A stretch of 64,000 nt of DNA from an uncultured virus (IMG/VR IMGVR_UViG_3300008448_000010). Lineage: Duplodnaviria; Heunggongvirae; Uroviricota; Caudoviricetes. Both the position numbers and the translations under genes were made by a program. Under the pieces are notes generated by a model. The model searched no databases. It worked only from the letters and a program-made list of their open reading frames with translations, and had not been told where the DNA came from. The stretch is from IMG/VR virus record IMGVR_UViG_3300008448_000010. One strand, 5' to 3'. Positions 8,896 through 58,900 of the stretch are shown here, in pieces (position 1 is the first letter of the stretch; the number at the start of each line of letters is the position of its first letter).

Positions 8896-9564
8896 TTATA
8901 AAGTATGTATTCTTACTGCACGCACATATTGAAGGTCACCTTTAACAAGTGATTGTATCGCCCCATCAACAAAAGCCTGACCCACCGCATTTGTACCTTG
9001 GTACTCAGTAGAACTCCAATAGAAAGAAAAAAGATTAGTTTGAAAACCATTTGTTGAGCCTAAAATTTTATTTACAACAGCTGCTGAATTATAACACATA
9101 TTTAACTCCCAGGCTGATGGTAGATACCAATCACTAAAAAGACCACCATTATGTAATCTTGCAATTCCTGCAGCATAAGCTGTAGTAGCAGCAGCTCCTG
9201 TTTGTGCTATAATTGCATTAGTATTTGTAAGTCCATTTGAATAACTTTCAGCTGCAGAACCTATTGTATTGCCCTGTTGTGCAAATACTGTCCAAGGTAA
9301 ATTGATAGCTAAATTAGTTAGACTTGCAATAAGTGCTTTTTTAACTCCAGCATCATCCCATTCTGCTACTACTATTCCACCTCCAATTAGTTTACCTATG
9401 TTTGATCCAGTTGATCCACCAAAAGCAGTTACGGGAACAGTAACTGGTAGATATGCATCTCCCCTATTTGTATTAGGAACACCAACTACAGTAACTGCAC
9501 CAGCTGGCATAGTTAGGCTATATTTTCCTTTTTTAAGCCAGGAAACAAAATTTAAAATATCCAT
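8896..9564 (-). CDS. DUF1566/Lcl-type C-lectin-fold domain protein
   Basis: DWYLPSAWEL...YWSSTE...VRAVR signature. Confidence 0.75.
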   Translation of the reverse strand: MDILNFVSWLKKGKYSLTMPAGAVTVVGVPNTNRGDAYLPVTVPVTAFGGSTGSNIGKLIGGGIVVAEWDDAGVKKALIASLTNLAINLPWTVFAQQGNTIGSAAESYSNGLTNTNAIIAQTGAAATTAYAAGIARLHNGGLFSDWYLPSAWELNMCYNSAAVVNKILGSTNGFQTNLFSFYWSSTEYQGTNAVGQAFVDGAIQSLVKGDLQYVRAVRIHTL

Positions 9565-9623
9565 TTTTATATTTTTAAGTATACTATAATATACAAATAA
9601 TTTATTACTAAAACAAATGTGTA

Positions 9624-10256
9624 TTATTCTGTATCATAAAACATTCTTTCAGAATCTTCTGTATGCCATTTATCAAATCCTTCACAGTTATAATAATCTT
9701 TGTTAACCAAGTAATCTGGTTTTTCTGGGAATGGTTTAGTTACAAATGAAGGCTCAGACCATTTGATTCTGTTATTAGGCTGGAGTGCAATCTGACCATT
9801 ATCAAGTAAAATAATATGGTGACTCTTATGTTCTAGTGGATCTTCTGCTAGAGATAGATCTGTGTTAGGATCATTAGATCCCCAGTTTATGGTACCGTAA
9901 TAACTACCCGGGTAAAACTTATGATCCTTCATATACACTTCTACTCTGGTATCATATAGATAAGAGAGATGGAGAAGAGTAAAATTATAAGAAAAACAAT
10001 TCCATATCTGTAAGTAATGAAATGGTAGATCTGGATCCGGCATCTCTGGTTCATGTAATAAAGCATGACTTGGTAACTTATCCCTAAGTACTCCATTTTC
10101 TAAGAGTACTTGAAACAATGCTGCTTGACCAGGTAAACATCTTACAGATATAATTACCCCCGGTGTAAATTCTCCATGTCCTTTTTTATGTTGGTACATA
10201 TATTCATTCCTTACAAATACTTTAAGAGGAAAAAAGTTGTGTTCTATATAAGCCAT
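9624..10256 (-). CDS. hypothetical phage protein
   Basis: 210-aa ORF with an upstream TAnnTTTG promoter. Confidence 0.75.
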   Translation of the reverse strand: MAYIEHNFFPLKVFVRNEYMYQHKKGHGEFTPGVIISVRCLPGQAALFQVLLENGVLRDKLPSHALLHEPEMPDPDLPFHYLQIWNCFSYNFTLLHLSYLYDTRVEVYMKDHKFYPGSYYGTINWGSNDPNTDLSLAEDPLEHKSHHIILLDNGQIALQPNNRIKWSEPSFVTKPFPEKPDYLVNKDYYNCEGFDKWHTEDSERMFYDTE

Positions 10257-10269
10257 AGTAAATATTTTA

Positions 10270-10305
10270 TGTCACAAATATAGATAACATCTGTGACATC
10301 ACCAA
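10270..10305 (-). promoter_or_regulatory. sigma-A-type promoter (-7 TATATTTG at 10275-10282) inside a 29-bp quasi-palindrome
   Basis: TGTCACAAAT-N9-ATCTGTGACA; TTG(G) 19 nt upstream of the -7 box. Confidence 0.55.
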
Positions 10306-10749
10306 TACATAAATCTTATAGTAGGTAATTGTTCCCCCGGGTATATTCTACCTCAGATGTAGCCCCCATGATCTCAAGTTTATTTTACTAAAAACTGGAC
10401 AAAGGGATATGGTTTTTTAATATATAAGGGAGGAAGGAGGGTCCCTATATAACACATCCCCCCACTCTCAGCCAGCCGGGGTACCCCCCATTGTTTTATA
10501 CAGCTTCATACTAATCAGGAATTATTTTCTAAAATAAATTCTACCAGGAAATAGTTTTAGTATTACTATGAAGTACATAGTAACTATGTTATGCTATGTA
10601 GTATAGTATTGTATAGTATATACTAGAGGATGTCAAAGGTCTTGGCTCACCACACTATATATATAGTATAGTATATTATATTCTATATATAAAGCCTTCG
10701 GCATTTACAGCTTTATACTGTTAGGAATATTAATTTAAAATTTAAAGTT

Positions 10750-10896
10750 ATGTGGTATAATAGAATTGTAATGGATGAGAATAATAATGAAATATTAAGA
10801 GAGAAATGTTTTGTTAGTGAAGTGTATGAGTTATATAATGGATTAGGTATGGATGTATGTGGTAATTATATAATTGAATTTTGGAGTGAAGAATAA
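10750..10896 (+). CDS. small early protein (48 aa, MWYNRIV...)
   Basis: Read from sequence; lies between motif copy 2 and a terminator. Confidence 0.6.
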   Translation: MWYNRIVMDENNNEILREKCFVSEVYELYNGLGMDVCGNYIIEFWSEE

Positions 10897-10922
10897 AGGG
10901 ATTAACATCCCTTTATTTTTTT
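10895..10922 (+). terminator. intrinsic terminator
   Basis: AAAGGGAT-taac-ATCCCTTT plus T-tract. Confidence 0.7.
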
Positions 10923-10960
10923 CTTTTAGCCTGCGGCAGCTACAGCTTTATACTAATACT

Positions 10961-11058
10961 AAAATAATAAATGTTTCCAGGGGGGAACAGGGCCAGCCGT
11001 GGCTACTGTTTAATATACCTACGAGAGGATTCCTATGGGAAGCATTTATTATTTTTTT
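10961..11058 (+). ncRNA. candidate ~95-nt structured small RNA
   Basis: 18-bp closing stem 10961-10978/11038-11055 encloses a GC-rich branched core; it sits alone between motif copy 3 and a T-tract. Confidence 0.6.
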
Positions 11059-11116
11059 ACAACAGCCTGCAGCAGCTACAGCTTTTAACTATTAATAAAC
11101 TTTAAAACTATATATT

Positions 11117-11491
11117 ATGAAAACAATTACTTACAAGAAAAAGATTGAAGTAGAAGCTACTGTAGCTTTTCCTGTTATTACATTTGTTGCTGAGAAAATC
11201 AGAATGTTTGAAGATGGTTACTCATGGGATACTATGGGTTATGTACCAAGATATGATGGGCTTACTATTGATGGTTATCATAAACTTACAGGCATGTATT
11301 GTGATGATATATGGAAAATGCTTGAAACATATGTCATGGAAACTTATCATGAAAAACGTACAGGATATGGTTCAATAGATTATCATGTGTATTCTGGTAA
11401 AGATGTTAATCTACCTGAGTTACCTAAGTTAGAAAACACAAATGGTAATGATGACCATGCAGACTTAGTTAACATGTTTAAGAACTTATAA
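11117..11491 (+). CDS. hypothetical early protein
   Basis: 124-aa ORF between motif copy 4 and a terminator. Confidence 0.75.
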   Translation: MKTITYKKKIEVEATVAFPVITFVAEKIRMFEDGYSWDTMGYVPRYDGLTIDGYHKLTGMYCDDIWKMLETYVMETYHEKRTGYGSIDYHVYSGKDVNLPELPKLENTNGNDDHADLVNMFKNL

Positions 11492-11511
11492 GGGGAGTAA
11501 TCCCCTTTTTT
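11490..11511 (+). terminator. intrinsic terminator
   Basis: AAGGGGA-gtaa-TCCCCTT plus TTTT. Confidence 0.75.
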
Positions 11512-11676
11512 GCTTATGCCTGCGGCAGCTTTAGATACAGCTTTAGACTATTAAGGATTATAATTAGTATTGTTACCTTTTCTTTAACCAGGTAAATATC
11601 CAGTAAGCTGCTGGCCAGAGTTCAACTGAGTACATAATGAACAGGGTTTGGTCTATGTCCCTATACTATAAAGACC

Positions 11677-11831
11677 ATAATTAATGCACCATTCTCACTT
11701 CCCAAGGGTGAGCAGTTGTAATATAGGTAGCGTGAACAGGAATAGAGCTTGCAGATTACTGTTACTTTTATAATAGAAATATTATAACGGTTGAAGGGCA
11801 AGTATATTACAACTGAGTGCAGAGGGGTTAT
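11677..11831 (+). ncRNA. twister ribozyme (type P1) with extended P5 insert, copy 1
   Basis: P1 ATAAT/GTTAT; TAA; P2 TGCA/TGCA; CC; P4 CTCAC/GTGAG with loop TTCCCAAGG; 13-bp P5; GAGGG. Covaries with copy 2. Confidence 0.75.
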
Positions 11832-11843
11832 TACCCCTTTTTT
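11823..11843 (+). terminator. intrinsic terminator overlapping the twister 3' end
   Basis: AGGGGT-tatt-ACCCCT plus TTTTT. Confidence 0.7.
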
Positions 11844-11925
11844 AAATAGCCTGCGGCAGCTTTATATACAACTTTGGACTGTTAGGGATAGTAATTATTA
11901 TTAATCCATTAAAAAAATTAAAGTT

Positions 11926-12222
11926 ATGGAAAAAGTTAAAGTACAAGCAACATTAGTGAATGTTGCAAACAATGCATTATCATTTGTTAATGCAGAAGGT
12001 AAAACTACATCTTACCGTAGATGTGTAGTTAATTTCAATAATACAGATTATTTTGCAAAGATTTGGGAAAAATCTTTTCAGAATGGTGTTACAGTAGGAA
12101 ATACCTATACTGTTGAAATACAAATGGACGGTGAAAATTATTGGCTTACTGTACTTAATGGTACACAAGCAAAGGTTGCAACAGCAGAAGACTTTGCACA
12201 CCTGTTTAGTTTTGCAGTATAA
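11926..12222 (+). CDS. small beta-rich early protein (possibly OB-fold-like)
   Basis: 98 aa with alternating beta-strand pattern; fold call is tentative. Confidence 0.7.
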   Translation: MEKVKVQATLVNVANNALSFVNAEGKTTSYRRCVVNFNNTDYFAKIWEKSFQNGVTVGNTYTVEIQMDGENYWLTVLNGTQAKVATAEDFAHLFSFAV

Positions 12223-12232
12223 GACAAACCAC

Positions 12233-12266
12233 ACAAAGCACACCCTTAATTGGGTGTGTTTTGTTT
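12233..12266 (+). terminator. intrinsic terminator
   Basis: ACAAAGCACACCC-ttaatt-GGGTGTGTTTTGT. Confidence 0.7.
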
Positions 12267-12307
12267 ATAAAGCCTACGGCAGTCTTAGTACAGCTTTATA
12301 CTAAAAG

Positions 12308-12394
12308 GTTTGCAAGATAACAGTTGCTGTTATGTGTAGCAAATGTTTTTATAAAAACTGTTTGCAAGATATAATTATCTGTTATTTGTAGCAA
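12308..12394. repeat. two 35-bp imperfect direct repeats separated by a palindromic 17-bp spacer
   Basis: GTTTGCAAGATA-N7-CTGTTAT(G/T)TGTAGCAA at 12308 and 12360. Confidence 0.7.
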
Positions 12395-12416
12395 GTCTCC
12401 AGCCTGTGTAGCTTTG
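12385..12416 (+). promoter_or_regulatory. Bacteroidota sigma-A-type promoter (TTTG-N20-TAGCTTTG)
   Basis: Exact -33/-7 consensus match. Confidence 0.65.
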
Positions 12417-12668
12417 TGACTTTAATACTGTAAATCAAGTAGTTATATTTTAGAAAATAGTGAGAAAGAGTGTGAAAGTGTGATAAAGTGAAAAACTATC
12501 ACCATATTATTGGCAGATTGTGTGTTAACAGATTGGGAATAAAGCCTTATAATATATATTTATATAGCTAATCATTAGTATTGACTATATATACTATTAG
12601 TATTATCTCTCTCTATAGGGAAAGCAAGGTTAGTATTTCCGGAATATTTAAAATTTAAAATTATACTT

Positions 12669-12896
12669 ATGGAAAATGTTTATTGGACTATGAAAAATGG
12701 TCAAAAGATTAATGTTGATACTATGGATATACAACATTTAAGAAATACTCTTAAGCTTATTATTAATAATAAAGCAAGAGTAATAACAACACCTGTAAAA
12801 CCTAAGTTTGAAATACAAGGTGATATAGCACAAAACTTCATTGAGCAAATGCTTGAAGAAGATTATGCTCCTGAAGATTATGATGATCTTCATTAA
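12669..12896 (+). CDS. hypothetical protein (YWTMKNGQKI...HLRNTL)
   Basis: 75-aa ORF with A-rich leader. Confidence 0.75.
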   Translation: MENVYWTMKNGQKINVDTMDIQHLRNTLKLIINNKARVITTPVKPKFEIQGDIAQNFIEQMLEEDYAPEDYDDLH

Positions 12897-13196
12897 TTAA
12901 TGTACCATTCCTGATTCCCAAGGTCAGGCAGTTGTAATACATAGGCATAAGACTACAGTTGTAGTTATAAATCCATACAGAGTTTAATTAACTCCAAGGT
13001 GGTATAGTTATGTCTGGTTTGCTAACACTTCAATCATTTAGCTAATGATTTGTGGAAACCACTATGCATTTTATGCTTGTTAATGGAAATCCTGTTATGG
13101 GTATTCTTACTGAACCTTCATATTAAAAAAGTCCCTAGACTTGTAGGTAGTGTAAAGGTAACAATGTATGTGTATTACAATTGAGTACAGAGGGAT
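12896..13196 (+). ncRNA. twister ribozyme with ~225-nt structured P5 insert, copy 2
   Basis: TAA 12898-12900; P2 TGTA/TACA; CC; P4 CCTGA/TCAGG with loop TTCCCAAGG; P5 12929-12941/13171-13183; GAGGGA at 13190. Confidence 0.72.
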
Positions 13197-13199
13197 ACC

Positions 13200-13380
13200 A
13201 TAGCATAAGTGGTGATGAATCAATGCAAGTATATGATACTTATTATCATACATATAGGTTGAAAGACCTTGAAATCCAATAACATAAGATACATGAACTA
13301 ATGATTGTAGTCATTATTGGTGCATATGAACAGGTGATGCTTAGAGGTTCATGGGTAGAAAGTTATTAGCATTAAACTTA
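13200..13380 (+). ncRNA. candidate structured RNA downstream of twister copy 2
   Basis: Non-coding. Helices ATGCA/TGCAT, TATGATA/TATCATA, AGGTT-GAAA-GACCT and CCAATAA/TTATTGG; possible pseudoknot CATGAAC/GTTCATG. Confidence 0.45.
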
Positions 13381-13409
13381 AGGGGAGTAATAAGATTACT
13401 CCTCTTTTT
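13380..13409 (+). terminator. intrinsic terminator
   Basis: AGGGGAGTAA-taaga-TTACTCCTCT plus TTTT. Confidence 0.7.
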
Positions 13410-13436
13410 AATTTGTAACCAATTAAATTTATATAT

Positions 13437-13604
13437 ATGATTACTTTGTTTATGATTACAGAAATAACCAAGTTGGTAGCTTCTGCACAGAAAAACAACA
13501 TTACATTTTCCCAAGAGTATATTGATGCTCTTTATGATTTACCTATTAATGTTATAGTAGAGTTACGGGAATCTTACAGTGCAGAGAAATTAGTTTCTGC
13601 ATAA
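13437..13604 (+). CDS. small hypothetical protein (55 aa)
   Basis: Read from sequence; TAATG-coupled to the next ORF. Confidence 0.55.
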   Translation: MITLFMITEITKLVASAQKNNITFSQEYIDALYDLPINVIVELRESYSAEKLVSA

Positions 13605-13822
13605 TGAATACATTAATATTTCTATGGTATCTGATTACAGGTACCATAGTATATGAAAAAAACATTGATGGTAGAAATACCTATAGAATGGAATTTAGTG
13701 ATACTACTCTAATTACAGAAGGTGGAAATAAGTTCTATGGTACTACAGTTGATTATGTTTATAAGGAAGAGATTCTGGAATACATAGAATCTGGAACCTT
13801 TGAGTATAATGAAGATTATTAA
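13604..13822 (+). CDS. hypothetical protein
   Basis: ORF track. Confidence 0.65.
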   Translation: MNTLIFLWYLITGTIVYEKNIDGRNTYRMEFSDTTLITEGGNKFYGTTVDYVYKEEILEYIESGTFEYNEDY

Positions 13823-13839
13823 TACTTAAAATTATACTT

Positions 13840-14142
13840 ATGATTTCTCAATTTACATTAGAAGACTATAAAAACTTAGTCAATCAAATTAAAACAACCA
13901 AAGTTAAAGCTAGACCAGAACGTAATAGATATGAAGGTAAATATGAAAGAAAAGACTCTTTATGGAGAAGAGAAAGAACTAGACCTTGGGATAAATGTTG
14001 GTTCAGTAATAAACCACACATTATTAATTTAACTGTTGAAGAAGCAGCAAATAGATATCCAGACTATATGAAATGGATATATAAAAACTTAACAGGTATC
14101 AAATGGTCTGTCTTTACTGAAAGACTACTTATGAAACTATAA
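13840..14142 (+). CDS. hypothetical protein (YPDYMKWI, DUF3820-like tail)
   Basis: ORF track; PxYxxW motif. Confidence 0.65.
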   Translation: MISQFTLEDYKNLVNQIKTTKVKARPERNRYEGKYERKDSLWRRERTRPWDKCWFSNKPHIINLTVEEAANRYPDYMKWIYKNLTGIKWSVFTERLLMKL

Positions 14143-14339
14143 AAATTTAGCCATAGTATGGGTATTCCCTACTAACACATCTAGCGGACTGTGGCTTTAT
14201 TAAATTAATTAACCTTAACAGTAGGATGGTAAAACTGTTATTATTTATTACTTATTTAAAATAATTATGAAACTATTATTAATCTTAGCTATAATGTATA
14301 TAAGTTTTATATGTTGGATGCTTACTAAAATTTAATCTT

Positions 14340-14570
14340 ATGAAAAAACTATTAAAAAGAAGAAAAGAATTATTAATCTTACTTGATGAAGCAAGAAGAT
14401 CAGATTCAGATTATGACTTTAAATTACAAGCAATTAATGACATAGACTATGAAATGTATCTGTTAGAAAAAGATCTATATCATTACAAAATGATGAGACC
14501 ATTTAAAGTTATGTTATATGGTTTTATAATTATTAGTATAGTAATGTTAACTTATATGTTTTTTAAGTAA
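14340..14570 (+). CDS. hypothetical protein with C-terminal transmembrane helix
   Basis: ORF track; hydrophobic C-terminus. Confidence 0.65.
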   Translation: MKKLLKRRKELLILLDEARRSDSDYDFKLQAINDIDYEMYLLEKDLYHYKMMRPFKVMLYGFIIISIVMLTYMFFK

Positions 14571-14782
14571 TGTGTAATACTATTACTTCTGTATTAGGAT
14601 TTGATCTTGATGCAGAGATTACAGATAATGAAGGGAATGTTATAGCTTCCGGAACTACTTGTAATTATATACCAGAAAATAAACCAGATTATGTATTTAA
14701 TGTAGACTATTATAACAAATGGACTAACTTTAATGAAGGTTTGTTAAATAAAATAAGAGATTACAGAAAATATAATCTATAG
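14570..14782 (+). CDS. hypothetical protein
   Basis: ORF track; TAATG coupling. Confidence 0.65.
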   Translation: MCNTITSVLGFDLDAEITDNEGNVIASGTTCNYIPENKPDYVFNVDYYNKWTNFNEGLLNKIRDYRKYNL

Positions 14783-14935
14783 AAGTTTAATTAGGATTGC
14801 TTTTCCTAAAAATAATAAGGGGTTATAATGACCCCTTTTTATTGTATTAGCTATATAATACAATAATTTTAGATTTTAATAAAGCTATGTTAAATATAAT
14901 ATAATATATTTACTTAATTATATGAATCATTACAA

Positions 14936-15208
14936 ATGTTATATCAGCTGCCAAACGGCAAAGTAATATATTTAAGTGTTGAGCAGTATCTAGATCTTAC
15001 AGATTTAGATATTCAGTACTTAATGTCTATTGACTATGGTGATCATATAGTAAATCCTTTTACAGATTCAGCAATATCTAAAAATACTAAAGAAAAGTAT
15101 TATGACTTTGATTATTTAGCAGATGATGAAAGTGATGTTAATGATATTATTTCAGATGATGATCCATTTGATGAAATAATAGATTTGTCTGGCCCCTCAG
15201 ATATATAA
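14936..15208 (+). CDS. acidic hypothetical protein (MLYQLPNGKVI...)
   Basis: ORF track; very Asp-rich C-terminus. Confidence 0.7.
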   Translation: MLYQLPNGKVIYLSVEQYLDLTDLDIQYLMSIDYGDHIVNPFTDSAISKNTKEKYYDFDYLADDESDVNDIISDDDPFDEIIDLSGPSDI

Positions 15209-15308
15209 TATTATAGTAAAATATAATATAAATAACTTATTACAGCTTGAGTAACTGTAATAGAGTATCTACTCATATAATCTATTTATTTATTTAAAAT
15301 TTAAAATT

Positions 15309-15782
15309 ATGCAATCAAAAGTTGTTGTAGTACCTGATGCTACTACCGGTGCAGTGATATATGTCTCTGCAAATAACCCAGACTATGGGTATGTAAAATT
15401 ACAACAAGTTAGAACACTTGTAGATGATAATGGATTTCTAAGGAGACAAAATATGTCTGCACTAATTCAAGCTCCTGTAGGTATTCTACAAGAAATGGGC
15501 TATTATGCAGGTCAAGTTCTTGAAGGTAAAATTATTATTAAAGAATCTTTGGCTCCATTTAATAAAAAATCTCCAGAAAGAGATTTAAAAATTGCAGGTA
15601 AAACAGGTATACTATGTAAAGTAGGAAATAATCCCATTTACCGTAAAACAGTGTATAATACTTCTAGTAATGCTGCAGATATAACTATTCAACATGATAA
15701 TATAGAAGAGTTACGTGAAGCATATGCTATACAAAGAGTATCAACTACTACAGTTAGAGCAAATGAGGACTTTACAATCTAA
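15309..15782 (+). CDS. hypothetical protein
   Basis: 157 aa, followed by a hairpin terminator at ~15801-15830. Confidence 0.75.
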   Translation: MQSKVVVVPDATTGAVIYVSANNPDYGYVKLQQVRTLVDDNGFLRRQNMSALIQAPVGILQEMGYYAGQVLEGKIIIKESLAPFNKKSPERDLKIAGKTGILCKVGNNPIYRKTVYNTSSNAADITIQHDNIEELREAYAIQRVSTTTVRANEDFTI

Positions 15783-15853
15783 TTTGTAAAGAATGTTACC
15801 AGAGGGGGACACTGATGTCCCTCTCTATTTTATTTAAAATTAATATATATATA

Positions 15854-16333
15854 ATGGAAAAGCTAAAACAAAGTATTAAAGAGTATCAAACAAGCAGTAA
15901 AACATACATTAAGTATGATACTGATGGGTATAATCAATACCAAAACTATTTGTACAAAAGAGCATTACATGGTCTTAGTGCAATGACTGAAAAAGAAATA
16001 GCTACTATGTGTAGCAAAAAGAAACAAAGAATTATTAATGTATATAAGAGAGCTCAAGTTGTAATTAATAAACTTAAACAACAAGCTACTATATCTTATA
16101 GTAATTTTCTTTTTAAATCTTTATTTCCAAACAGTCCAATTACAGAATTTTTACTAACTGAAACTGAAACAGATGTAAGTATCATTAATACTCTAAATTT
16201 TAAAGATTTAAATATTAATAAAAGTGATATTATTACTATCTTTATACAAGAAGGAATCCTTCCAAAAAACTTTTTAAGTTTAGAAGGACCACAAGTAAAT
16301 ATTATTCAATTACCAAGACTAAAAAATGAGTGA
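15854..16333 (+). CDS. hypothetical protein
   Basis: Probable start MEKLKQ, after the terminator. Confidence 0.7.
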   Translation: MEKLKQSIKEYQTSSKTYIKYDTDGYNQYQNYLYKRALHGLSAMTEKEIATMCSKKKQRIINVYKRAQVVINKLKQQATISYSNFLFKSLFPNSPITEFLLTETETDVSIINTLNFKDLNINKSDIITIFIQEGILPKNFLSLEGPQVNIIQLPRLKNE

Positions 16334-16541
16334 CTATACACCAAAGTTAACACCATTAGATCAAGAATTTTATGATTTGCTTTCTGGATTAGATTTAGAA
16401 GATTTAAGAACTATGAGAGATGAAAACTATTGGTGGACTACCTGTATATTTACAGGTGCACAAATACCTAGACCTAAATATGAAAAAATAGATCTTATAA
16501 GTTATTATATTGCAAAAGGTGTACCTAAACCAAAAGAATAG
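16326..16541 (+). CDS. hypothetical protein
   Basis: ORF track. Confidence 0.65.
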   Translation: MSDYTPKLTPLDQEFYDLLSGLDLEDLRTMRDENYWWTTCIFTGAQIPRPKYEKIDLISYYIAKGVPKPKE

Positions 16542-16545
16542 TTAT

Positions 16546-16980
16546 ATGGTAAAATTGAAAGAATGTTATGGATGTATGAAACCATCTGTAATTTGGAAAA
16601 ACCATGAGGGATTTAGATATTGCAAAAATTGCTGGAGTTGTCACCAAAGCAATCTTGTTGCTCAGAAACCAACTGAAAACCTAATCCCTGTGGTTCTTCC
16701 TAATGTAAAGAAAAGACCAAGAATAAAGCTAAAATCTGAAAAGCAAAAAGCATTAGATAAGGCTTATTTATTAATGAGAAAAGAATATATGAATAAGAAT
16801 CCTTTATGTAATGTTAAAGTATCAAAAGATTGTTTCTTTAATGCTACTGATATACATCACATGGAAGGAAGAGGTGAAAAAACATTAACACAATTATCAT
16901 GGATATCAACTTGTAGACCTTGTCACACTTGGATTCATGAACATCCTGAAGAGGCTAGAATACTTGGATTTTTAAAATAA
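16546..16980 (+). CDS. Zn-binding HNH-like nuclease
   Basis: CxxC pairs; DIHH...CRPCHTWIH motif. Confidence 0.6.
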   Translation: MVKLKECYGCMKPSVIWKNHEGFRYCKNCWSCHQSNLVAQKPTENLIPVVLPNVKKRPRIKLKSEKQKALDKAYLLMRKEYMNKNPLCNVKVSKDCFFNATDIHHMEGRGEKTLTQLSWISTCRPCHTWIHEHPEEARILGFLK

Positions 16981-16994
16981 TATGATTTAAACTT

Positions 16995-17744
16995 ATGATT
17001 ATGAAAAAACAATTTATACAAATTGCTGTCACAACTGATTACACAATGTTTAATTATTTACCAATGAATAGAATAATAGATTCTAAACAGGTAGAAGCTT
17101 TAGTAGAAAGTATTAGAGCAATGGGTCTTACAAGACAAGTAATCTGTATTAAGACAGCTTGTATTGACGGAGAACTTAAAACTTATATAATTGATGGTCA
17201 ACATTTAGTACATGCTTGTCAAAGAGAAAACATTCCTGTAGAATTTAGATATATTGAAATTGTAGATGAAGATGATATTGTTAAAAAGATGGCTTTTTAT
17301 AACAATTCTTCTAAGTCTTGGAAACTTATGGACTATGTAAATGCATGGATGTATATTCATCCAGATTACACTATGCTTAAAAAGTTTAAAAATTTATATA
17401 ATCTTGAGCCATTAATGATTGCAAGTATTTGTAATAATACAGATTCTTATAATGGAATATGTCCAGCAAGTCAATTAATCAAGAATGGTAACTTTAGAGT
17501 TACTAATCCTAATGCTGAAACTATGTGTAAAGATTTTAGTGATTTATTTATTAAAATCGGTAAAGCTGACAGATGGGTTAAACATCAGTTTTTAAGAGTA
17601 TTTATTCAAGCTTATAATAGTAAAAATTATAACCATGAGGTTACTCTTCAAAATGTTGATAAGAATATTGCTACTATTAAGACAATGACAGATATTTCTG
17701 TAGCAAACCATTTTATACAAAAAAATGTTTTCAATTTAATTTAA
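16995..17744 (+). CDS. ParB/Srx-like N-terminal domain protein
   Basis: NR...LVESIRAMG...YIIDGQH motif. Confidence 0.6.
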   Translation: MIMKKQFIQIAVTTDYTMFNYLPMNRIIDSKQVEALVESIRAMGLTRQVICIKTACIDGELKTYIIDGQHLVHACQRENIPVEFRYIEIVDEDDIVKKMAFYNNSSKSWKLMDYVNAWMYIHPDYTMLKKFKNLYNLEPLMIASICNNTDSYNGICPASQLIKNGNFRVTNPNAETMCKDFSDLFIKIGKADRWVKHQFLRVFIQAYNSKNYNHEVTLQNVDKNIATIKTMTDISVANHFIQKNVFNLI

Positions 17745-27017: not shown

Positions 27018-27698
27018 ATGGATTTACAAGAAATAAAACAAAAATTATTTAATAAATTTGCAGTTAATGGGTGGGACAAAGTTTTCAGATCATTTGTTTA
27101 TAGTACAGATTTTGATAATATATTAACAAAATTATGGGAATTAAGCAATGATGATAAAAAATTTACACCACCATTAAAACAAGTATTTAGAGCATTTGAA
27201 GAATGTCCTTATGATAATCTTCAAGTTGTAATAATAGGACAAGATCCTTATCCACAATTAGGAGTTGCTGATGGTATATCATTTAGTTGTAGTAATACAA
27301 ATAAATTACAACCTAGTTTAAGATTTATCTTACAAGAAGTTGATAGAACTGTATATAATAATGAAGTTATAAGTGAAGACCTGAATCTTAAAAGATGGTC
27401 AAATCAAGGTGTACTTATGCTTAATACAGCTCTTACAACTGAAATAGGTATTATTGGTAGCCATTATGATATATGGAGGCCGTTTACTACATATTTATTA
27501 GATTGGTTGAATATAAATAAATCTGAGCTTGTATATGTTTATATGGGTAAAAAAGCAGAAGAGTGGTCATCTATGACAGATGATACTAATATAAAATATT
27601 TTGTAAAACATCCTGCAAGTGCAGCTTATAATGGTTCTAAGTGGGCTTCAGATGATTTGTTTAATAAAATTAGTGTACATAAAAAAATAATTTGGTAA
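27018..27698 (+). CDS. ung: uracil-DNA glycosylase, family 1
   Basis: GQDPYP, PSL, QGVLMLN, HPAS motifs. Confidence 0.9.
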   Translation: MDLQEIKQKLFNKFAVNGWDKVFRSFVYSTDFDNILTKLWELSNDDKKFTPPLKQVFRAFEECPYDNLQVVIIGQDPYPQLGVADGISFSCSNTNKLQPSLRFILQEVDRTVYNNEVISEDLNLKRWSNQGVLMLNTALTTEIGIIGSHYDIWRPFTTYLLDWLNINKSELVYVYMGKKAEEWSSMTDDTNIKYFVKHPASAAYNGSKWASDDLFNKISVHKKIIW

Positions 27699-49937: not shown

Positions 49938-52900
49938 TTATTGACAATCAGTTGATGTTCTTGGTATTCCTGGTAATCCATCTGGTGCATTAAGATTATC
50001 TGTAGGTGGTTGAGTAACAAAGTTTTTAAATCCTTCTATATCTTTTTTAGAACCTAGTATGTTAATTTGTTCTGACTTAGGTACAATAATAACTTGGTAA
50101 GGTTTAAGTTCTCTTGTAAATCCATCTGCAGTTTCTGTTTCAATGTAATAATCTTCACTACTTTCTTCTGCTATATAACCATCTTTAGTTTTATCAATAT
50201 TTTTAGCATCTAATAAATCTGTTACAAATTTAGTTCTTTGTGGATTTAATACATTAATTATACTTGGATTTAAATTTTGAGTTTTTACACCATTACCTTG
50301 TTTATCAAATTTCCAAGCATAAATTGTATCAGCTGCATTTTTATCCGTAGTAAAGAAGAAACCTAATTTATCATACTCAGGAGTATCAAAAATTGTTGCA
50401 TTCTGTGTTGCTTTAAATTCATCTTTAAACTCTTCAATTTTTTCCCCACTACCATGATAAACAATATCTTTAACTTGACTGTTTGGGAATATAGTACTAA
50501 GATACTCTGAGTATTGTTCAGGAGTTCCTATTGATGCTAATTCAGGATTAGAATCAAATAGTTCTGACACACCTTCTTTAACACTAGTAGATGATTGAGT
50601 AGGTTTAAATGTATTAACATATACATCTCTGATAGCTTGTTTAGCAGCTTCTTCTACTTTTTTACCCTTATACTGTTCTCTTGGTAACCATTTACCATCT
50701 TTTTGCACATTGTAAGATTCAATATCTCTTGAACCTATGCCTGCAAAGTTTTTAGTAAGAGTAGGTGTATCAGTTTCTTCAAACCATCTATTTCCATCCC
50801 ATTTATACCAAGATTGTGTAGCTAAATCCCATACATAAACAGGTTTACCTAATTTAATTCCCAGTTGTACTGCTGTATTTGTTCCTCCTTTTACAATATG
50901 TTTATAAGAATTTACTGATTTTGTTATGTCAGTAGTATTTTTAGGAGCATCTTTATCAACTACTTGTGTGATTTCAGCAATAGCATATACAGCATCTGCA
51001 TTAGCTACTTGATAATAATTTCTTACTTGTAAATTTCCTTGTAAAGTATCTGGATAACTTTGTCCAAGTAATCTCTCTACTTCTGTTCTAGCTTGATCCA
51101 TTTGTTCTTTAGTAAGTACTGTAGCTTTTATACCAGCATTTCTAAGTTTTTGAGACAAGTTAGCATTACCAGCATCTTTATAATGCATATGTTTAGTAAC
51201 ACCAAATTCTCTACCTATCATATCCCAGAAAGTATCTCCACCATAAGCTCCTCCAGAATGATTAGTAAATTCAGCTGGATTAACACTAGTAGATGATTGA
51301 GTAGATTCTTCTCCAATAGGTTTAATACCCATTTTTTCAAGCATAGCTACTGCTTCTTCTTCAGACATAAATTCATCTTCTTCTTTAACTACAGAAGGTT
51401 CTGGTTTAAGATATTGCTTAGGTGTAACTAATAAGTTTTTAAATACTTTGTTACCGGGCTCAACTAACTTATCAAAGATAACAGCTAGTGTGTCTTCATT
51501 AAGTTGTTTATTTATAAATATTTCAGAAGCTGTTTGCATTACTCCTATGAATCCTTCATAAGGTAATGCTCTTGTAAAGCCATACTTACTATAACCAATA
51601 CCATGTTGATACATCATCATTTGTGGTAATAAAGCAAATAGTTTACTTATTCTTTTATTATCTTCAGGATCTATTACTTTTTTAATATCTTCATTTCCAA
51701 GATCTTCTAAATTTTGGAAATAAATTTCAGCTAACTGTGCATCCTTTAATGATTTAGTATCATTTAAACTTAGCACACGTTCACCAGTTTTAACCTTTGG
51801 TATTGTAAATTGGGTTAAAATAGGATACTTATTTTTAAGTTCTGAAAATTCTTCTACCATATTTAAAACCATATCTGTATAAGATTGGCCATCTAATGTC
51901 ATAATAGTTTCTCTATTAAATGCATTAATTAATGCTCTTTGATTAATATATGCTTCATAAGATTGTGCAGGATCTTTGATTATTGAGTTGATTTTTAAAT
52001 AATCTTTATTAGTTTCAAGTGATTTCATTGAATAAAGATTTCTTTGAAGTTCTCTCTCAAATACATATTTAAAATATGTGGATTCATTAGGAAACAATTT
52101 TTCTACATTTCCAAAACCTCTCAATCCTTGTTTAGTATAACCAGCAGCATCTGTATTATCTCTTAAGTATAATTTTTTACTATACTCATTAGATAATCTT
52201 GTCTTGTCAATATATAGTGTACCATTAATTATTTGTGCACCATTTTTAACACCAGCTTTTTCTTTAACAGGAAACCCTTCAAAGTTATCAGGCATTGAAG
52301 TTATATTACCATTTTCATCTATAAAATTAGACTTGTAATTTTGATAGATATAATTAGGTATAGCATTTTTAAATTCTGTAATGAATCTTCTTGTACCATC
52401 ATGACCTCTTCCAAAAGTTCTAGTAATTATATTTTGTTTTAACTGGATAGTTTTAACAATATAATTTGTTACAGTATCATTATTTCTTAATGGAAATAGT
52501 GGAACTATTAAGTCACCAATAAGTTTATTATCATAAAAAGAACCTAAGATAGAATCCATCATTTTTTCAACAGTACCCTCTTCTATTGTTGACATTGATT
52601 TAGCATCTTCAATAGATAAGTTTCTTCTTATTATCTCTTGTAAAGTTTTAGAAGTCTTAGTATCTGGATTAGACATAAATTTTAAAGATGTATATCCACG
52701 GGTAGATTTTTCAAGTTCTAAGAAATGTAAGAACATTGCTACTGCATGATTTTTTAATTCTGGAGCATTAGGATTCTTAACAAGTTTACTCATCATTTTA
52801 ATGTCAAACTCAAGAGCATCATTTAATATTCCAGATTTAGATGTAGCATCAACGGCAGCCTTATAATATCCTTTAGCACTAACTAAGCTACCAGCTTTTT

Positions 52901-55900
52901 TAATACCTACTGTCTCAAGTGCATTTACAGCAGCTTCATATTTAGTTTTAGTTTCAGGAAAGTTTTCATCAATTTTACCTGTCATTTTAGCATAAGCACC
53001 TTTAATTATTCTTTGTTGTTTAGCATATTCTCTTACAAGAGGATTTGAAACAAACATAATAGCATGTTCTTTTGGAACACCTGCTTTAAGTAAGAATGTA
53101 ATCATTGGTGCTATCTCATAGTTACCTTGTATAAAGAATATCCATGGATTTTTCTCAACATCCACTGCACCATTCATCATTTGTGAAAATAAGTCACCAA
53201 TATTATCTAAACCATCTGCTGTATCAGTACCAGATAGAGATACATTACCCTCTGTAGTTTTATTATGTGGTAATAGTAATCTTGTTTTATTAGTCTGTTT
53301 TTTACTATCAACATTTCTTTGTAAGCCCTCATCAAAAACAGGATTTTGATAAGTAGCAGGTAATGAAGCTCCAATAGAATTAAGTACTGGATGTAATGCA
53401 TTTTCAATAGCAATTAGACCAAGTACTCTTTTACCAACCATATTTACTTCATGCTTGTGTAAGTTATAAGATACTTCTAGAGTTCTAGTAGGACTAATTA
53501 CTTTTTCACCTTTCTTACCAATTCTTTCAGATTCTTTATGCATGTTCTGAAATCTATTGTATTCAACAACATCATTCTCAATCTTATCAGCAATATCATC
53601 TTTTAATAAATAGGTATCATTTGGTCTAACTAAACCTGCATAGTTATCTGGTAACTCAAGAATACCTTTAATAGTTGATATTAATTCATTCTCTAGAGCA
53701 GCTTTTTGAATTTTAATTAAGTTAGTAGCTGTTTTTGAACCTTCTGGTGTAGCAGCTAATCTATTTACTTTAGCTAATAATTCATCATTAGTAATACCTG
53801 TTTTAACAAAGTTACCTTTAGTATCAATTGTAGGCATAAATGTGGTCAACTTATCTACGTCATAGTCAGTTCCTGATTTAGCTACAATCTCAGTTGGAGG
53901 AATAATAATATTTCCAGCTGCCGGATCTAAGAACTCATATACTTCCATAAACTCCATAGAGTTTAATCCTTGTACTGGAATCCTAACTGCAGATAAAGTA
54001 ACAGACTTTCTATTATCATTTTGATCTAACCAAGCATCTTCTTTAATCATATCATTTAATCTAGCTCTTGTCCCAATAGGTTGGCCATCTAAATGATTAA
54101 GTTTAAGTAAATTAACAAAGTCTCCTTGTAATGCTATAGCAACTTTCATAGCTAATGTTTTACCATCAGCTGTGTCATTGTTATAAAAAGGAAGATTATT
54201 AGTACCCATAAACTTTAGTATATCTGCTTTAGTACCTTTCTTAAGATTGTTATCCCATAGTCCATTAGACATAGAACTAGCTACTTGAACTAATGGTTCT
54301 CCTTTTACTTTTTGTTTAATAAGTCTTTTCTCTACTAATGCAACTAAGATAGCTTCAATTTCATCAGCCATTAAGTGTAATGATAAATCTGTTTTTATAG
54401 AGTTATCTCTATTAAGACCTACCATTTGTACAAGATGTTCTGGAACATCCTTTCTTTCTAGTTCTCTTTGTACTACATTTAAGAAATCTTTTAAGTTTCC
54501 GGTATATTTACCAGTTTCTTTATTTTCTTCATAACCAATCTCATGTAATAGTTCTAGTTTTAAAATCTTACTATAATTATCTACAGCTTTTTCATAAGCG
54601 TTAATAACTGCTTTATTATTAGAATTAATAATTTTACCATTACGATATAAACCACCCAAAATAAGTTTTCTTAACTGAGTTGAAAATACAGTTTTGTTTT
54701 TATACTTATTTGGAACAGATGTTACATTTTTAAGATTCTCAAGATAAATAGTATTCTTTGTAAATTTGATGTTTTTCTTTAAAACTTTTTGATCAGACTT
54801 AGGCTCATAGATTTCATCTGCTACTGCTTCACCTTCTTCATTAACTGTAGAAGTTTCACTACCTACTTTAGAACCAGTTTGGAATGATACATACTGAATA
54901 TTATCTTCCATCATTTGTCTATGTAAAGACTGAAGATCTGACCCTTCAATCACTGAAGGAATTAATGGAGCTAATGCAAATTTATGCATAGCTGTTACTG
55001 GAAGTTTAGTATTAGCTAATGCACCAAAGTTCTGAACTTTATATACAGGAAACATTTCTGTTATGTCAGATGCATTTACTTCTTCTCCTCTTAAAATTCT
55101 TTGGAAAAGAATCTCTTGCTCATTTGACCAATTATTCTCAAGGTATCTTAAAGTTCTATATGCATCAAAAGTTATAAAACCTTGACCATCAGCTTCTTCT
55201 ATATCTTTATATTTACTTATTTCCTTTTCAACCCTAATGTCTATTTCAGCTTTTGCATTCTTAACACCTGCTTCTTTATATCTTCTTTCATAATCTTTTC
55301 TAAGACCTTTTTCAATTTGTCCTAAATACTCTGAAGTTCTTTTTACATCTTGAATAATAGCTGTATTATATGTTCCATCATATGCTATTGTAGGCATACC
55401 AGCTTTTTTAGCATAGGATGTTTTAGCTAAAAAATCTTTTACAAAGTTTCTAGCGGCAATGTCAGTTCTAAATCCTCTACCACCTGAAGTTGATCCAGTA
55501 TTTCTTTTATGTAATTCTTCTTTATCATGATTGTACTGAGACATATCACCATAAAATAATACAGCCATTTCAAAGTTCTGAACCCAAGAATTATAGGTAT
55601 AAGTTTCAACAAGTTTATCTTCAATTTGATTTTCTGCAACACCTAAGTCACTCATTTTTTTAATCAAATCCTTACTAATAAAATTAGCATTAGTAAGTAA
55701 GCCAGTATTTATTTTAGTTTGATCTTTAAAATAAGTTCTTACATTATCTTTAACAGTAATTAATAAACCTGTATTATCATTTCTAAGAAATTCTGTAAGA
55801 TTAAAATTCTTTTTTTCTGCAATAGCTTTATCAATAGCTTTATATATTTGTTCTTTTGAGCTTTTAGTAAGTACATTATCAAATGCAGTAAATACTTCTC

Positions 55901-58900
55901 CAGCCATAAGACCATTACCTAAATCTCTATTGTATCCTGCATATTTTGAATACTCTTTTTTGTTCTGTCTAAACTTAAAGATTCTCTCAGCTTCTGCTTC
56001 CATATAAGGTAGCATGTGAGCTTTAAATCCATATTCATATGCTGTATTATCTGTAAACATTTTAACATCAATCCAAAGATGACCATCACTACCTTCTTTA
56101 CCTGGTAATCCAATTACTCCACCTTCTATCTTAGCACCAAATGAAGATGACTTAGATGCATGTCTCATAAATTCTTGAACACCATCTTTAAGCATAGTAT
56201 TAATTTCTTGAAGAAATTTACCGTTAACATCTAATGATGTTGTATTTAAACCAGTATCTTCTCCTTCAATTTGAGTTCCAGAATCCATAAATAATTTTAA
56301 GGATCTATTTGCTCTTCTTTTTTGTTCAGGAGAACTTAATTCATACAAAGTTCTAATGGTAGCTAATCTCTTTGTGTAAGGATTAGTTGCCGGATCAAGA
56401 TAAGACATATGTTGAAACTTATCCGTTGTCCATAGATCAGAAAGTTTAGTAGCATTGTTTAATGCATATACTTGTTTGCTTATAGTATTGTTCTCAATAA
56501 ATTCAGACACTAAGTTTCTTTCTGCATTAAGAACCATACCAGTAGATGCTTCTAATCCATATTTACTTTGAAGAGTTGCAATTTCTTTTATCTTATTTTT
56601 TTGACCTTCTCTAGTAGTACCAATTATATTTTCTGGTATACCATCCATAAGAGTTTGTATGGGATCATTTTTAAACTTAGCAATAACTGTTTTTACAGTG
56701 CTATTAGTATTTTCTAATTTAGACTTGTCATTTAGTCTTTTAACAATATCATAAATATATGGTAGACCAAATTGCTCAATAGTTTTAGTATCTTTTTTAA
56801 GTGTATTTTTAATTATACTTATATCATCTAAATAAAAACCAATAGCTCTTGCAAATGCAAAAGAATTAGAAGTATCTAATTTACCATTTATTCCAAAAGC
56901 ATCTACAACTTTTTGTAAATTTAAAGTTGGAATATTATCTCTTCCAATTCTATCTACATATAAATTAGTTGTAGAAGCTTTAAAATTTTCTTGAAATTTT
57001 CTTATAACATTAAATACATCATTAGATGCATCAGTTACTGCAGTACTATATTCAAATATATCTATCATTTTTGTACCATAGTATCCATCAGGTACTTCTT
57101 TTTCTCCTATTTTAGTTTTAAATACTGTTAACTGAATATAAGGTATTCTTGATTTACTAAAGTCTTGCCAAATAGCTGAAGTAGCTTGAAACTCATATTG
57201 ATTAGTTGAATTTTCTGGATTAGCTATCTTAGTATCAACAAGTTGTTTAATCTGAGCATTTGTTTTTGATTCCTCAACTAATTTATCATACTGTTCTTGA
57301 GCATCTTGAATACCACCAATAGCTCTTACTGTGTTATTCCAAGTAGTTCTAAAGTCTGCAAGTTTTTTAAAACCAAGTTCATTATATTGATACTCAATTT
57401 TATTAGTATTTTTATTAATCTTACCTTCATGTAAACTCTTTAAAATATAAAGAGTCTCTTTACCTGCTAGTTCTATTAGTGATTTCTGGCCATCTTTCTT
57501 GTCACCATATCTTTCTGTATTCTCAAGATTTGCAGGCTCCATTAAGTTACCTTCTTCATCTAATTCAAGAGCAGTATATTTCTGTCTCATCAAATCATAG
57601 GTACTATTATCTACATGGTATTTAATTAAACCATTTGTAGTATCTCCATAGTTATCTAAACCAGCTTTAAGAATTCTTATTCTATTTTCTAAAAGCTCTT
57701 TCTTAAATTCATTTTCTTTAGTGTCTTCTGTATCTTCAAGTTGTTTAGTAGTGCTGTTTAACTTATCTTGTAATTTAATTTTTATTAACTTATATAAGGG
57801 TTCTCTATTTCTTGAATCTAATAGAATACTTAAGGTACCTGATTTAATTACTTTTGAAGGAACTTGATCATCAATGATATCAGAGATGATTGAATCCATA
57901 CTATCTTTAAGTAGATTAGAATCTTGTCTATTAAGTACTTGGTCAGTCTCTGTTCCCGGTTTAACAACACCACTATTTCTATATAACACATCAAACATTA
58001 CATTGTCAATAGATGGCGTGTAAATGTTTAAACCTTTTCCAAGGTATAAGTTATCAAATAACTCTTTGACAGCTTTAATATCTGCAGTATCTGTTACTGA
58101 ACCTTTTCCAAAGAGTTCTCTTAAAAAGTTTAATATTTTTCTAAATAAGCTATTTCTTTTTGGAGAGTTAGCTTTAACCTTTCCTGTTCTTACATACTCA
58201 CGGAAATCCTCAGCAAGCATTTCCTCTATTTCAAAGAAGTCAACCTTAGTTCCAAGCTTCTTCTGTACCTCTCTATACAAAGCTTTTTTCTCAGCCCTAC
58301 TTAGGTATAATTGAGAAAATCCATGCCATGCTTCATGATATACATCTACCATAGAACCCTTTGCTGCAAGATCAATCATACCCAGATTACCATTAAGAGT
58401 GGCACCATAAGCTGTAAATCTTGCAAATGCATCTGAGTTAACTATATTAGCTACTTCTCTAAATCCAATATGTTTATTTAATGGAGAGTTAGCCCACCAT
58501 GTTTTTGCATCTGCTATTTGTTCTTCAGATACATCTGATGGTAATTCACCTTTTCTATAGAAAAATATATCTGCTGCTCCACCATCTTCAGGTTTAGCAA
58601 CATTTTTAGGATCAAGTGTTTCATTAATTTCTGCTTCAATTTCTTCTACAGTCTTTGTTGGTGCTGCAGTTTTTGGAGCATCAAAGTCTTCAGTTTCTCT
58701 TACATAACCAAGTAACTTATCTCCTGCTTTTACTTCAATAACATTAGTAAACTTCTTACCATTAAATTCAGCTTCTGGAACTAGATTTAAACTAACTTCA
58801 GTTGCAATGTCTTCAGCAGTAATATTTTTTTCTTTATTATAAAACTCAATAATATTTCCTTTTGGAGTTGTTATATGCCATTTAGATTGTGCACCAAATG

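Follow-up and report, generated by a model that had tools for sequence, protein, structure and literature searches.

What is the structured RNA that follows directly behind a small gene of an uncultured lake phage, and does it serve to set its long insert free? The window, that is, the whole 64,000-nucleotide (nt) stretch of the Caudoviricetes record IMGVR_UViG_3300008448_000010 that was analysed, carries on its plus strand two RNA elements of the same design, copy 1 at 11677-11821 and copy 2 at 12897-13196. The latter was described in an earlier note as a second twister ribozyme, working as a reusable chassis that frees interchangeable RNA cargo from a messenger RNA (mRNA). Copy 2 is most probably a type-P1 self-cleaving ribozyme of the twister class, belonging to a phage-borne subfamily, with cleavage predicted from its sequence. 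As read from the collected members, this subfamily lacks P3 and is only weakly paired in P1; its P5 is long almost without exception, and many members show a hairpin just upstream. Twisters, the optional P5 and a link to phage genes are already known from the available sections of three papers (PMC6765202; PMC6154101; PMC11662667), the first of which places twisters near phage genes. What stands out is the swappable arm alone, since the scaffold belongs to a type already described. No description of a P3-less phage twister subfamily was found in the literature covered, although such P5 forms may be treated in the supplements of PMC11662667.

In the available sections of PMC11662667, the twister is built of the stem-loops P1/L1, P2/L2 and P4/L4, tied together by a pseudoknot of 2 base pairs (bp), PK1, and by a second one of four positions, PK2, which includes an A.A contact. 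There, A1 is the general acid, A2 is essential, and the G that starts the 3′ strand of L1 is the general base; P1 is dispensable, whereas P0, P3 and P5 are optional and P5 is well tolerated. Each feature of this description has a counterpart at copy 2, namely U^AA, a 4-bp P2, a potential 2-bp PK1, P4, an L4 containing CCCAAG, GAGGG, and a P5 on the 3′ side of L2. The predicted cleavage site U^AA lies at 12898-12900, with the cut between T12898 and A12899; following the roles assigned in that source, A12899 takes the general-acid position and A12900 that of the conserved A2. The 5′ strand of P2, TGTA (12901-12904), pairs with TACA (13186-13189). It is followed by CC (12905-12906), the putative 5′ side of PK1, which can pair with the loop GG at 12922-12923, and next by ATT. 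P4, CCTGA/TCAGG (12910-12914/12924-12928), encloses the L4 loop TTCCCAAGG (12915-12923), whose CCC at 12917-12919 forms PK2 with GGG at 13192-13194. The basal stem of P5 is made of CAGTTGTAATACATA (12929-12943) and its partner at 13169-13183, giving 15 pairs in the minimum-free-energy (MFE) fold, including one G.U and one U.G. After a following AG, the 3′ strand of P2 and GAGGG occupy 13186-13194, with GAGGG at 13190-13194: G13190 stands in the general-base position, A13191 is the A.A partner and GGG provides the 3′ side of PK2 (roles again after PMC11662667). The MFE fold of copy 2 recovers P2, P4 and P5, with a z-score (z) of -2.25, and 3 of 100 shuffled sequences did as well.

Direct reading confirmed that copy 1 has the same scaffold with compensatory changes in P2 (TGCA/TGCA against TGTA/TACA) and in P4 (CTCAC/GTGAG against CCTGA/TCAGG), while the loop TTCCCAAGG and GAGGG are identical in both copies, and the P5 base CAGTTGTAATA is common to them. 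The inserts are unrelated, as the earlier note had proposed, and fall by blastn into separate singleton clusters. Copy 1, also on the plus strand, has a P1 of 5 bp (ATAAT/GTTAT), a predicted cut at 11682/11683 and a P5 region of 105 nt, and its MFE fold recovers P2, P4 and P5 with z -3.51, a value that none of 200 shuffles reached. It occupies its own cassette at 11518-11833, between a predicted promoter and a predicted terminator; at the corresponding place in the nearest record, G001, there are about 70 unrelated nt and no twister. By using a covariance model of the family, just these two copies were found in the window: copy 1 scored 99.3 bits (E 5.5e-24), copy 2 gave two hits of 51.9 and 18.4 bits split by its arm, and a hit of 7.8 bits at 56869 is noise. 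The same model found 1-2 copies per record in 5 near-complete phage records. An inverted pair of CAGTTGTAATA-like words at 27223/27431 was set aside as chance, lying inside an open reading frame (ORF) and having no twister core.

Two side observations concern copy 1. At 11812-11833, a terminator-like hairpin, GGGG-TTATTA-CCCC, with six T behind it, takes its 5′ half from GAGGGG; the stem of only 4 bp is below the threshold of the hairpin scan. Since GAGGGG doubles in this way, PK2/P1 and the terminator would be mutually exclusive, and the same overlap is seen in loci L057 and L089. In addition, a motif ATCCAGTAAGYTGCTGGC with the hairpin CCAG..CTGG lies in the leader before copy 1 (11590-11625), and it comes after twisters in other phages (L042, L121).

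The scaffold is not confined to this phage. A pattern taken from the core in the window, CCATT-N5-TTCCCAAGG-N5-CAG, gave at least 127 matches in at least 121 viral-contig loci, and the subfamily was found in phage contigs only. Among the 127 matches listed, counted raw and before any selection, P4 is fully paired (5/5) in 118, has 4/5 pairs in 4, and has three or fewer in 5, which are chance hits. The scaffold thus recurs in 122 of the 127 with covarying stems, far above chance. Within these 122 listed matches, TAA stands at the cleavage position in 113, and the 3′ strand of P2 with GAGGG follows the core in 111, the remainder being mostly cut by locus ends. For the covariation analysis, 68 distinct members with a P5 of up to 100 nt were aligned. 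Overall, 88.3% of the cells are paired, in comparison with 76.8% in shuffles (0 of 500 reach the observed value) and 32-41% when partners are slid. P4 is paired to 99.4%, with all five pairs changing on both sides, and the P5 base to 87.5%, with 8 of 11 pairs doing so. The variable pair of P2 is C-G in 47 members, U-A in 19 and U.G in 2, and 2 pairs change on both sides; the 100% pairing of P2 has no weight, because P2 pairing was a selection criterion. The general-base G of GAGGG is invariant in this alignment.

The decisive test was that of the pseudoknot PK2. A variant loop, UUCCAAAGG, together with GAUGG, was spotted behind loci with the tail motif described below and was then scanned for. 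Among the 27 loci with this loop, in which CCC is replaced by CCA, GAUGG is found in 25, GAGGG in 1, and 1 is unresolved, so that 25 of 26 resolved loci carry the matching change. With the loop UUCCCAAGG (CCC), GAGGG is present in all 111 resolved loci of those listed, with no other form and 10 unresolved. One pair of PK2 therefore shows a compensatory exchange of C-G to A-U. For PK1, CC and GG can pair; the variants found, which are compatible with pairing, are U.G only, 5 of 5 at position 1 and none at position 2, with no double change.

Several observations weigh against the assignment to twister. The Rfam twister model RF03160 (68 positions, gathering score 67.2 bits) does not recognise the family: searches of Rfam gave no gathering-level hits in the whole window or in ten short-arm loci. 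At E≤10, neither the regions 9000-17000 and 11660-11850 nor the minimal members L020 and L028, nor an excerpt of 71 nt from a minimal member, gave a twister hit, and RF03160 found nothing in 4 phage records. At several sensitivities Rfam returned weak chance hits only (small nucleolar RNA, microRNA and the like), none of them to a ribozyme. In copy 2, P1 comprises just 2 bp, as the earlier note had seen, and it is 57.6% paired in the 68-member alignment. Among 98 members, contiguous P1 pairs number 0 in 3, 1 in 25, 2 in 25, 3 in 18, 4 in 12, 5 in 10 and 6 in 5, so that 53 of the 98 have no more than two. The family was collected with a pattern derived from the window, which samples one subfamily, and members entered the aligned set only if P2 was paired and P4 had 4/5 pairs or more. 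In an RNA library, a contig of a relative (X17 record 12) runs uncut across the cleavage site (12806-12933), and contigs of this kind may reflect DNA carry-over, their ends, strand and level not being readable. Finally, the identity of 94.8-100% between the copy-2 unit and G001 may reflect recent transfer rather than selection.

On the other side, since Rfam was silent, the twister features were tested individually against the description in PMC11662667, with the correspondence given above, and the absence of P3 may explain the miss by RF03160. According to the available sections of PMC6154101, P0, P3 and P5 occur in 21%, 78% and 1% of annotated twisters, which makes a form that lacks P3 and bears P5 rare. 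The weak P1 does not exclude membership, because P1 is dispensable (PMC11662667). In the large assay described in the available part of the same paper, about 94% of the tested natural twisters were active, and cleavage exceeded 0.80 in every one that bore a P5. For copy 2, a distal P1 (TTCATT 12888-12893/GATGAA 13211-13216) was considered and ruled out, because GATGA belongs to the conserved tail motif, and this motif is found in places that have no twister as well. A possible P0-like hairpin, GAAGAT/ATCTTC at 12873-12891 on the plus strand, lies 6 nt 5′ of the cleavage site within the 3′ end of the ORF and is kept in G001 with a G.U pair. Hairpins just 5′ of the twister are common in the family; this one may be a matter of chance in coding sequence.

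If copy 2 is a twister, the course of events can be outlined. Once GAGGG is transcribed, the loop CCC and GG would pair with GGG (PK2) and CC (PK1), and the RNA would cut itself co-transcriptionally between U12898 and A12899. The 5′ piece would consist of the leader and the ORF at 12669-12896, ending in a 2′,3′-cyclic phosphate 2 nt past the stop codon; the earlier note had this spacing right, with TAA at 12894-12896 and the cut at 12898/12899. The 3′ piece, of about 510 nt and with a 5′-OH, would hold the ribozyme, a P5 arm of 250 nt and a conserved tail, and would end at the terminator. The arm would be a self-contained hairpin module, docked where the ribozyme tolerates additions, and it would stay attached. 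Catalysis, the ends of the products, use of the promoter and any function of arm or tail are what we infer from the sequence.

The idea of a chassis freeing interchangeable cargo therefore survives in part. The twister fold and the unrelated, modular P5 inserts stand, but the insert would not be freed by cleavage, because the cut falls on the 5′ side of the entire ribozyme and leaves the insert enclosed between the two ribozyme halves. Nor do assembled contigs from four RNA-library runs of three studies (X15 and X16 from one, X17 and X18 from two others) agree with an insert set free as a discrete RNA. The X15 contig (464 nt, 12919-13382) and the X16 contig (451 nt, 12917-13367) match the window with 0 differences, joining arm, 3′ core and the tail of 180 nt, so that the three are present in one molecule in RNA libraries. 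X17 and X18 gave close variants of the copy-2 arm and tail; they further contain relatives whose conserved flanks enclose 74 or 73 different letters instead of the arm. Contigs from elsewhere in the family map in large number to the shared core. Contig starts at 12917-12922 in the three studies were rejected as an RNA end, because the preceding core, common to other twisters, would break the assembly graph. The stretch 11835-12638 was covered by none of the four runs, a gap that is no evidence of differential stability. Further runs with only small shares play no part in statements on habitat. Release from an mRNA, also part of the earlier proposal, appears incidental, because the ORF is missing from two relatives, the loci L178 and L036, in which leader, twister and tail are all present.

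Attention can then be turned to the arms. The expectation of a conserved scaffold with variable inserts was borne out by the collection: 104 of the P5 regions are distinct, and blast sorts the first 96 of these into 82 clusters. Of these clusters, 72 are singletons, and the regions are unrelated past the base. In the 104 distinct twisters listed, P5 measures 14-257 nt (median 89.5), with 20 nt or less in 3. The copy-2 arm is the longest sampled, and 200 nt or more is reached only by it and the near-identical copy of G001. The median uninterrupted base of P5 in the listed twisters is 11 bp, and the first 10 nt are CAGTTGTAAT in 49 of the 104. When 91 inner arms were compared by blast with the collected DNA, with P5 regions masked, free-standing homologues appeared. 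The copy-2 arm recurs at L050:83-317 with 93.6% identity and no twister core on either side, its end separated by 5 nt from the TAA of another twister, and the L104 arm is free-standing behind the L100 twister. The unit common to copy 2 and L050, at 12932-13180 on the plus strand, comprises the P5 stem past its first 3 pairs and the distal branched region. With these homologues, and with unrelated arms between near-identical flanks, the inserts behave as independent, exchangeable modules, as had been suggested, and the P5 arms are, judged from these sequence comparisons, modules exchanged between phages.

The fold of the arms gives a less uniform picture. In comparison with dinucleotide shuffles, arms are on average slightly more stable, the mean z of 85 arms being -0.64 (t-test p 4e-6), with 13% below -2 and 38% above 0; the distal arm of copy 2 (z -1.01) is not notably more stable than shuffles, and the arm of copy 1 scores -1.14. 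All five nested helices reported earlier for the copy-2 insert can be read from the sequence, and MFE or RNAalifold folds show most of them, but two are not kept in relatives: a substitution in G001 disrupts GGTTT/AAACC, and in L050 an A.C enters GCATAA/TTATGC. When window, G001 and L050 are aligned, predicted pairs survive 5-6 one-sided changes (G.U to Watson-Crick or the reverse) and are broken by 3, and one hairpin is replaced in L050 by a different local hairpin. Because some changes break pairs and one hairpin is replaced, these comparisons are suggestive, though not strong, as to a selected fold of the copy-2 arm. In a five-member arm lineage, a three-hairpin fold is kept and 2 pairs are changed on both sides. 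A long-range pairing of the arm in the MFE fold, AAUCCAUACAG/CUGUUAUGGGUAU, is unsupported, the segment being a local hairpin in L050.

What the arms do can be read in different ways. It is quite possible, if short of probable, that they are functionless passengers at a permissive P5 site, shuffled by recombination between co-infecting phages and drifting fast. The conserved core (about 45 nt on the 5′ side, 25 nt on the 3′ side and the stem TTGTAATA/TATTACAA) would then provide the recombination homology, and selection would act only on the ribozyme and, in the copy-2 unit, on the tail. The hypervariability of the arms in sequence and length (14-257 nt) fits this well, as do the break-points of the L050 homology, placed exactly at the third P5 pair, and the varied combinations of inserts, tails and leaders (L036, L004, L042; L041, L178). 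The weak thermodynamic signal points the same way; likewise, in the available sections of PMC11662667, neither P3 nor P5 yielded a consensus, and their role is called unclear. Yet neutral inserts should vanish by deletion, and a short P5 is rare (3 of the 104 listed). The copy-2 arm, moreover, shows 98.3% identity with G001 across 12940-13172 and 93.6% with L050, where its surroundings are unrelated, and some arm lineages retain their fold through compensatory changes.

Closer to the earlier proposal, the twister could be a reusable chassis for functional P5 RNAs with trans-acting jobs as decoy, guide or protein sponge, the ribozyme giving the arm a defined 5′ end and a stabilising frame. The autonomy of the arms in L050 and L100 speaks for it, together with the nearly constant retention of a long arm, the unrelated arms borne by relatives with 96-97% identical tails, the arm lineage with two-sided pair changes, the one-sided substitutions that preserve pairing in the copy-2 arm and the average stability over shuffles. 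We nevertheless regard it as unlikely: the cut leaves the arm attached, in keeping with the contigs that hold arm, 3′ core and tail together, and with 72 of 82 clusters being singletons, most arms are not conserved outside one lineage. A share of 38% of arms has z above 0, the copy-2 arm itself reaches only -1.01, and three substitutions break its predicted pairs. Two family members, L020 and L028, have only a 4-bp P5 hairpin. When antisense targets were sought by blastn-short in the 64-kb window, with the two arms, the tail and the leader of copy 1 as queries, nothing above chance came up (best 14 nt, E 0.044).

It seems rather improbable, on the sequences collected, that the P5 arms form a pool of autonomous, fast-diversifying hairpin RNAs, docked in or beside the twister and exchanged as cassettes with an arms-race turnover. 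Under such a scheme, lake phages would express the arms among their first transcripts, the twister would lend a nuclease-resistant 5′-OH frame, and the arms might be, for example, decoys or sponges for host RNA-sensing defences or rival phages; each of these points we hold to be just as doubtful. Finally, that these are twister-shaped RNAs which no longer cut and have a structural or regulatory part in early transcripts (a protein-binding fold, or a switch against terminator hairpins) could be suspected from the near absence of P1 in copy 2, the GAGGGG shared with a terminator-like GGGG/CCCC hairpin in copy 1, L057 and L089, and the uncut contig of a relative, but it is very unlikely given that A1, A2, the G of GAGGG and the positions of PK1 and PK2 are all retained, that PK2 is kept by compensatory change, which argues for selection on an active fold, and that P1 proved dispensable and the P5-bearing twisters all cleaved above 0.80 in an assay with about 94% active (PMC11662667, available sections).

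The preferred reading, a self-cleaving phage twister with an exchangeable P5 arm, can be placed in its transcription unit, which runs on the plus strand from a promoter-like motif, GCCTACGGCAG (12272-12282), to a terminator-like hairpin at 13380-13411. The motif, GCCTRCGGCAG, has 5 matches in comparison with 0.06 expected, all on the plus strand (10929, 11065, 11518, 11849, 12272) and each directly 3′ of a terminator-like hairpin, so that a putative promoter role is ascribed to it on the basis of sequence and position. As a side observation, its extended form is GCCTRCGGCAG(C)TTTA.ATACA.CTTT, and the 5 copies partition the early region into small cassettes, some of them without an ORF (10929-11064; 11518-11833). 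Downstream of the motif lies a non-coding leader of about 385 nt (12283-12668), which would fall in the 5′ cleavage product. It has two tandem imperfect hairpins, which lie within 12309-12397 and are almost identical in G001: TTTGCAAGATA-ACAG..CTGTTAT-GTGTAGCAAA (also written TTTGCAAGATA..CTGTTAT..TAGCAA). The ORF at 12669-12896 encodes 75 amino acids (aa), gave no PHROG or Pfam match and is optional in the unit. In L178 and L036/L134, the leader end (85-86%, corresponding to 12600-12663 and immediately 5′ of a twister), a twister with another arm and the same tail (96-97%) occur in its absence, and homologous ORF starts (ME.VYWTM.NGQKI) are found 3′ of twisters in L048 and L062. The terminator-like hairpin has 12 pairs at 13380-13406, followed by the T-run TTTAATTTGT, and is the predicted 3′ end of the unit. 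In comparison with G001, identity is 94.8% over 12223-12668, 98.9% in the tail and 100% in the terminator-like hairpin, giving 94.8-100% for the unit 12223-13410 as a whole against 66.5%, 72% and 83% in flanking ORFs. These sequence values indicate either recent exchange or strong constraint.

Three elements make up the tail (13197-13379, plus strand, within the predicted 3′ product): AAGTGGTGATGAATCA enclosed by a stem GCAT..ATGC, then a hairpin that varies, and another one, AGGT-TGAAAG-ACCT. In L036 and L178, where the tail stands behind other twisters, its identity is 96-97%. The tail motif AGCATAAGTG-N-TGATGA has the closing ARTGC in 31 of 53 hits, of which 5 of 31 lie directly behind GAGGG, and by its sequence distribution the tail appears as a module in its own right. 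Tail-type modules were also seen in L133-L185, recurring in many phage contigs mostly without a twister immediately before them and giving no Rfam match; they share three conserved hairpins, of which the first is a GCAT..ATGC stem enclosing AAGTG-N-TGATGAA, the second varies, and the third covaries and has the loop TGARAG. A hammerhead (CUGAUGA..GAAA) was rejected for the tail, in which the first base of the heptamer is G, C or T and which gave no Rfam hammerhead hit, and so was a C/D-box RNA, the snoR20 hit reaching 26 bits in comparison with a threshold of 43 bits.

Other recurrent pieces were noticed around these elements. Behind the tail module in L140 and L142 (also in L137, L146, L180 and L184) there is a piece resembling a transfer RNA (tRNA). 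Its stem, GGTCAAG/CTTGACC, counts about 7 bp, and its T-arm contains GGTTCAAGTCC; the other loci carry CAGGTGCAAAGCCTG instead. The same piece, GATGCTCCC..AGGTGCAAGGCCTGCAT, follows twisters in L059, L070, L107 and L120, and a module TTGTTGCAYATGRAAYACAT..GCTGAGGCAACATTAGGCTATATATTCGC stands directly behind GAGGG in L018, L024, L056, L078, L079 and L087. In L182, the tail module comes after an RNA with a twister-like 3′ end (..CAACTGAG CACA GAGGG) and a differing 5′ side (..TTAATCATTTTCCCAAGTTAGGGCAG), which is not parsable as the same scaffold.

As for the wider locus, the window has phage gene content with a DNA polymerase and helicases, and both twister copies stand at the head of a plus-strand block of small genes, which is the early-gene block of a large lake phage. 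No tRNA was found within the 64-kb window, and blastn at a distant setting gave no match of 11000-14000 to GenBank phages. Elsewhere in the window, a 3627-aa ORF (49938-60821, minus strand) shows near its C-terminus a sub-threshold match to ART-PolyVal, an ADP-ribosyltransferase domain (28.6 bits in comparison with the Pfam cut-off of 31.2), and is accompanied by a 1952-aa ORF (LysM) and a 1021-aa ORF.

The role of twisters in bacteria and phages is a standing question, and here a large, phage-only branch has been overlooked by curated models. This branch offers natural compensatory evidence for PK2, occupies a constant position in early transcription units, has left traces in RNA libraries from lakes, and represents a concrete system for asking what self-cleavage does for a phage. 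If the copies cleave, arms of up to about 250 nt in P5 demonstrate a natural tolerance of the twister that could be useful for RNA engineering. If the arms do form a pool of diversifying hairpin RNAs, the ribozyme with its docking stem would be a natural scaffold displaying variable RNAs; if they are inert, the find is a correction to ribozyme catalogues and not a new principle.

Cutting of an early phage transcript has a familiar precedent in phage T7, in which RNase III processing sites lie between early genes, and the polycistronic transcript is cut at hairpin-rich intergenic sites that leave structured ends. The analogy is one of role only, since what is predicted here is self-catalysis without a host enzyme, leaving 5′-OH and cyclic-phosphate ends. 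Another example is given by the theta ribozymes of gut phages, which resemble the hepatitis delta virus (HDV) ribozyme, lie 3′ of tRNAs and are proposed to process them; the available text of PMC10879173, which describes them, makes no mention of twister or hammerhead. Like the elements of the window, they form a phage-specific subfamily of small self-cleaving RNAs beside other small structured RNAs. They differ in class and fold and in their position 3′ of tRNAs, whereas here a twister heads a non-coding RNA with a variable arm, in a window without tRNA (PMC10879173, as available).

The closest likeness is with the type-P1 twister itself (RF03160; available sections of PMC11662667 and PMC6154101). 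The order P1, U^AA, P2, PK1, L2, P4, L4 with CCCAAG, P5, the 3′ strand of P2, GAGGG and the 3′ strand of P1 is the same, and PK2, the general-acid A, A2, the general-base G and the position of P5 on the 3′ side of L2 are shared, with PK1 able to form, while the hairpin upstream of many members recalls the optional P0. In comparison with the rice twister, whose P4 and L4 read CCGGTCCCAAGCCCGG (PMC11662667), L4 here has 9 nt with GG where rice has GC. In contrast to the twisters annotated so far, the phage elements have no P3, a P1 of mostly 0-3 bp and no response from RF03160, and the P5 present in 1% of the annotated ones is here near-universal, long (median 89.5 nt, and 257 nt in copy 2) and conserved in the sequence of its base.

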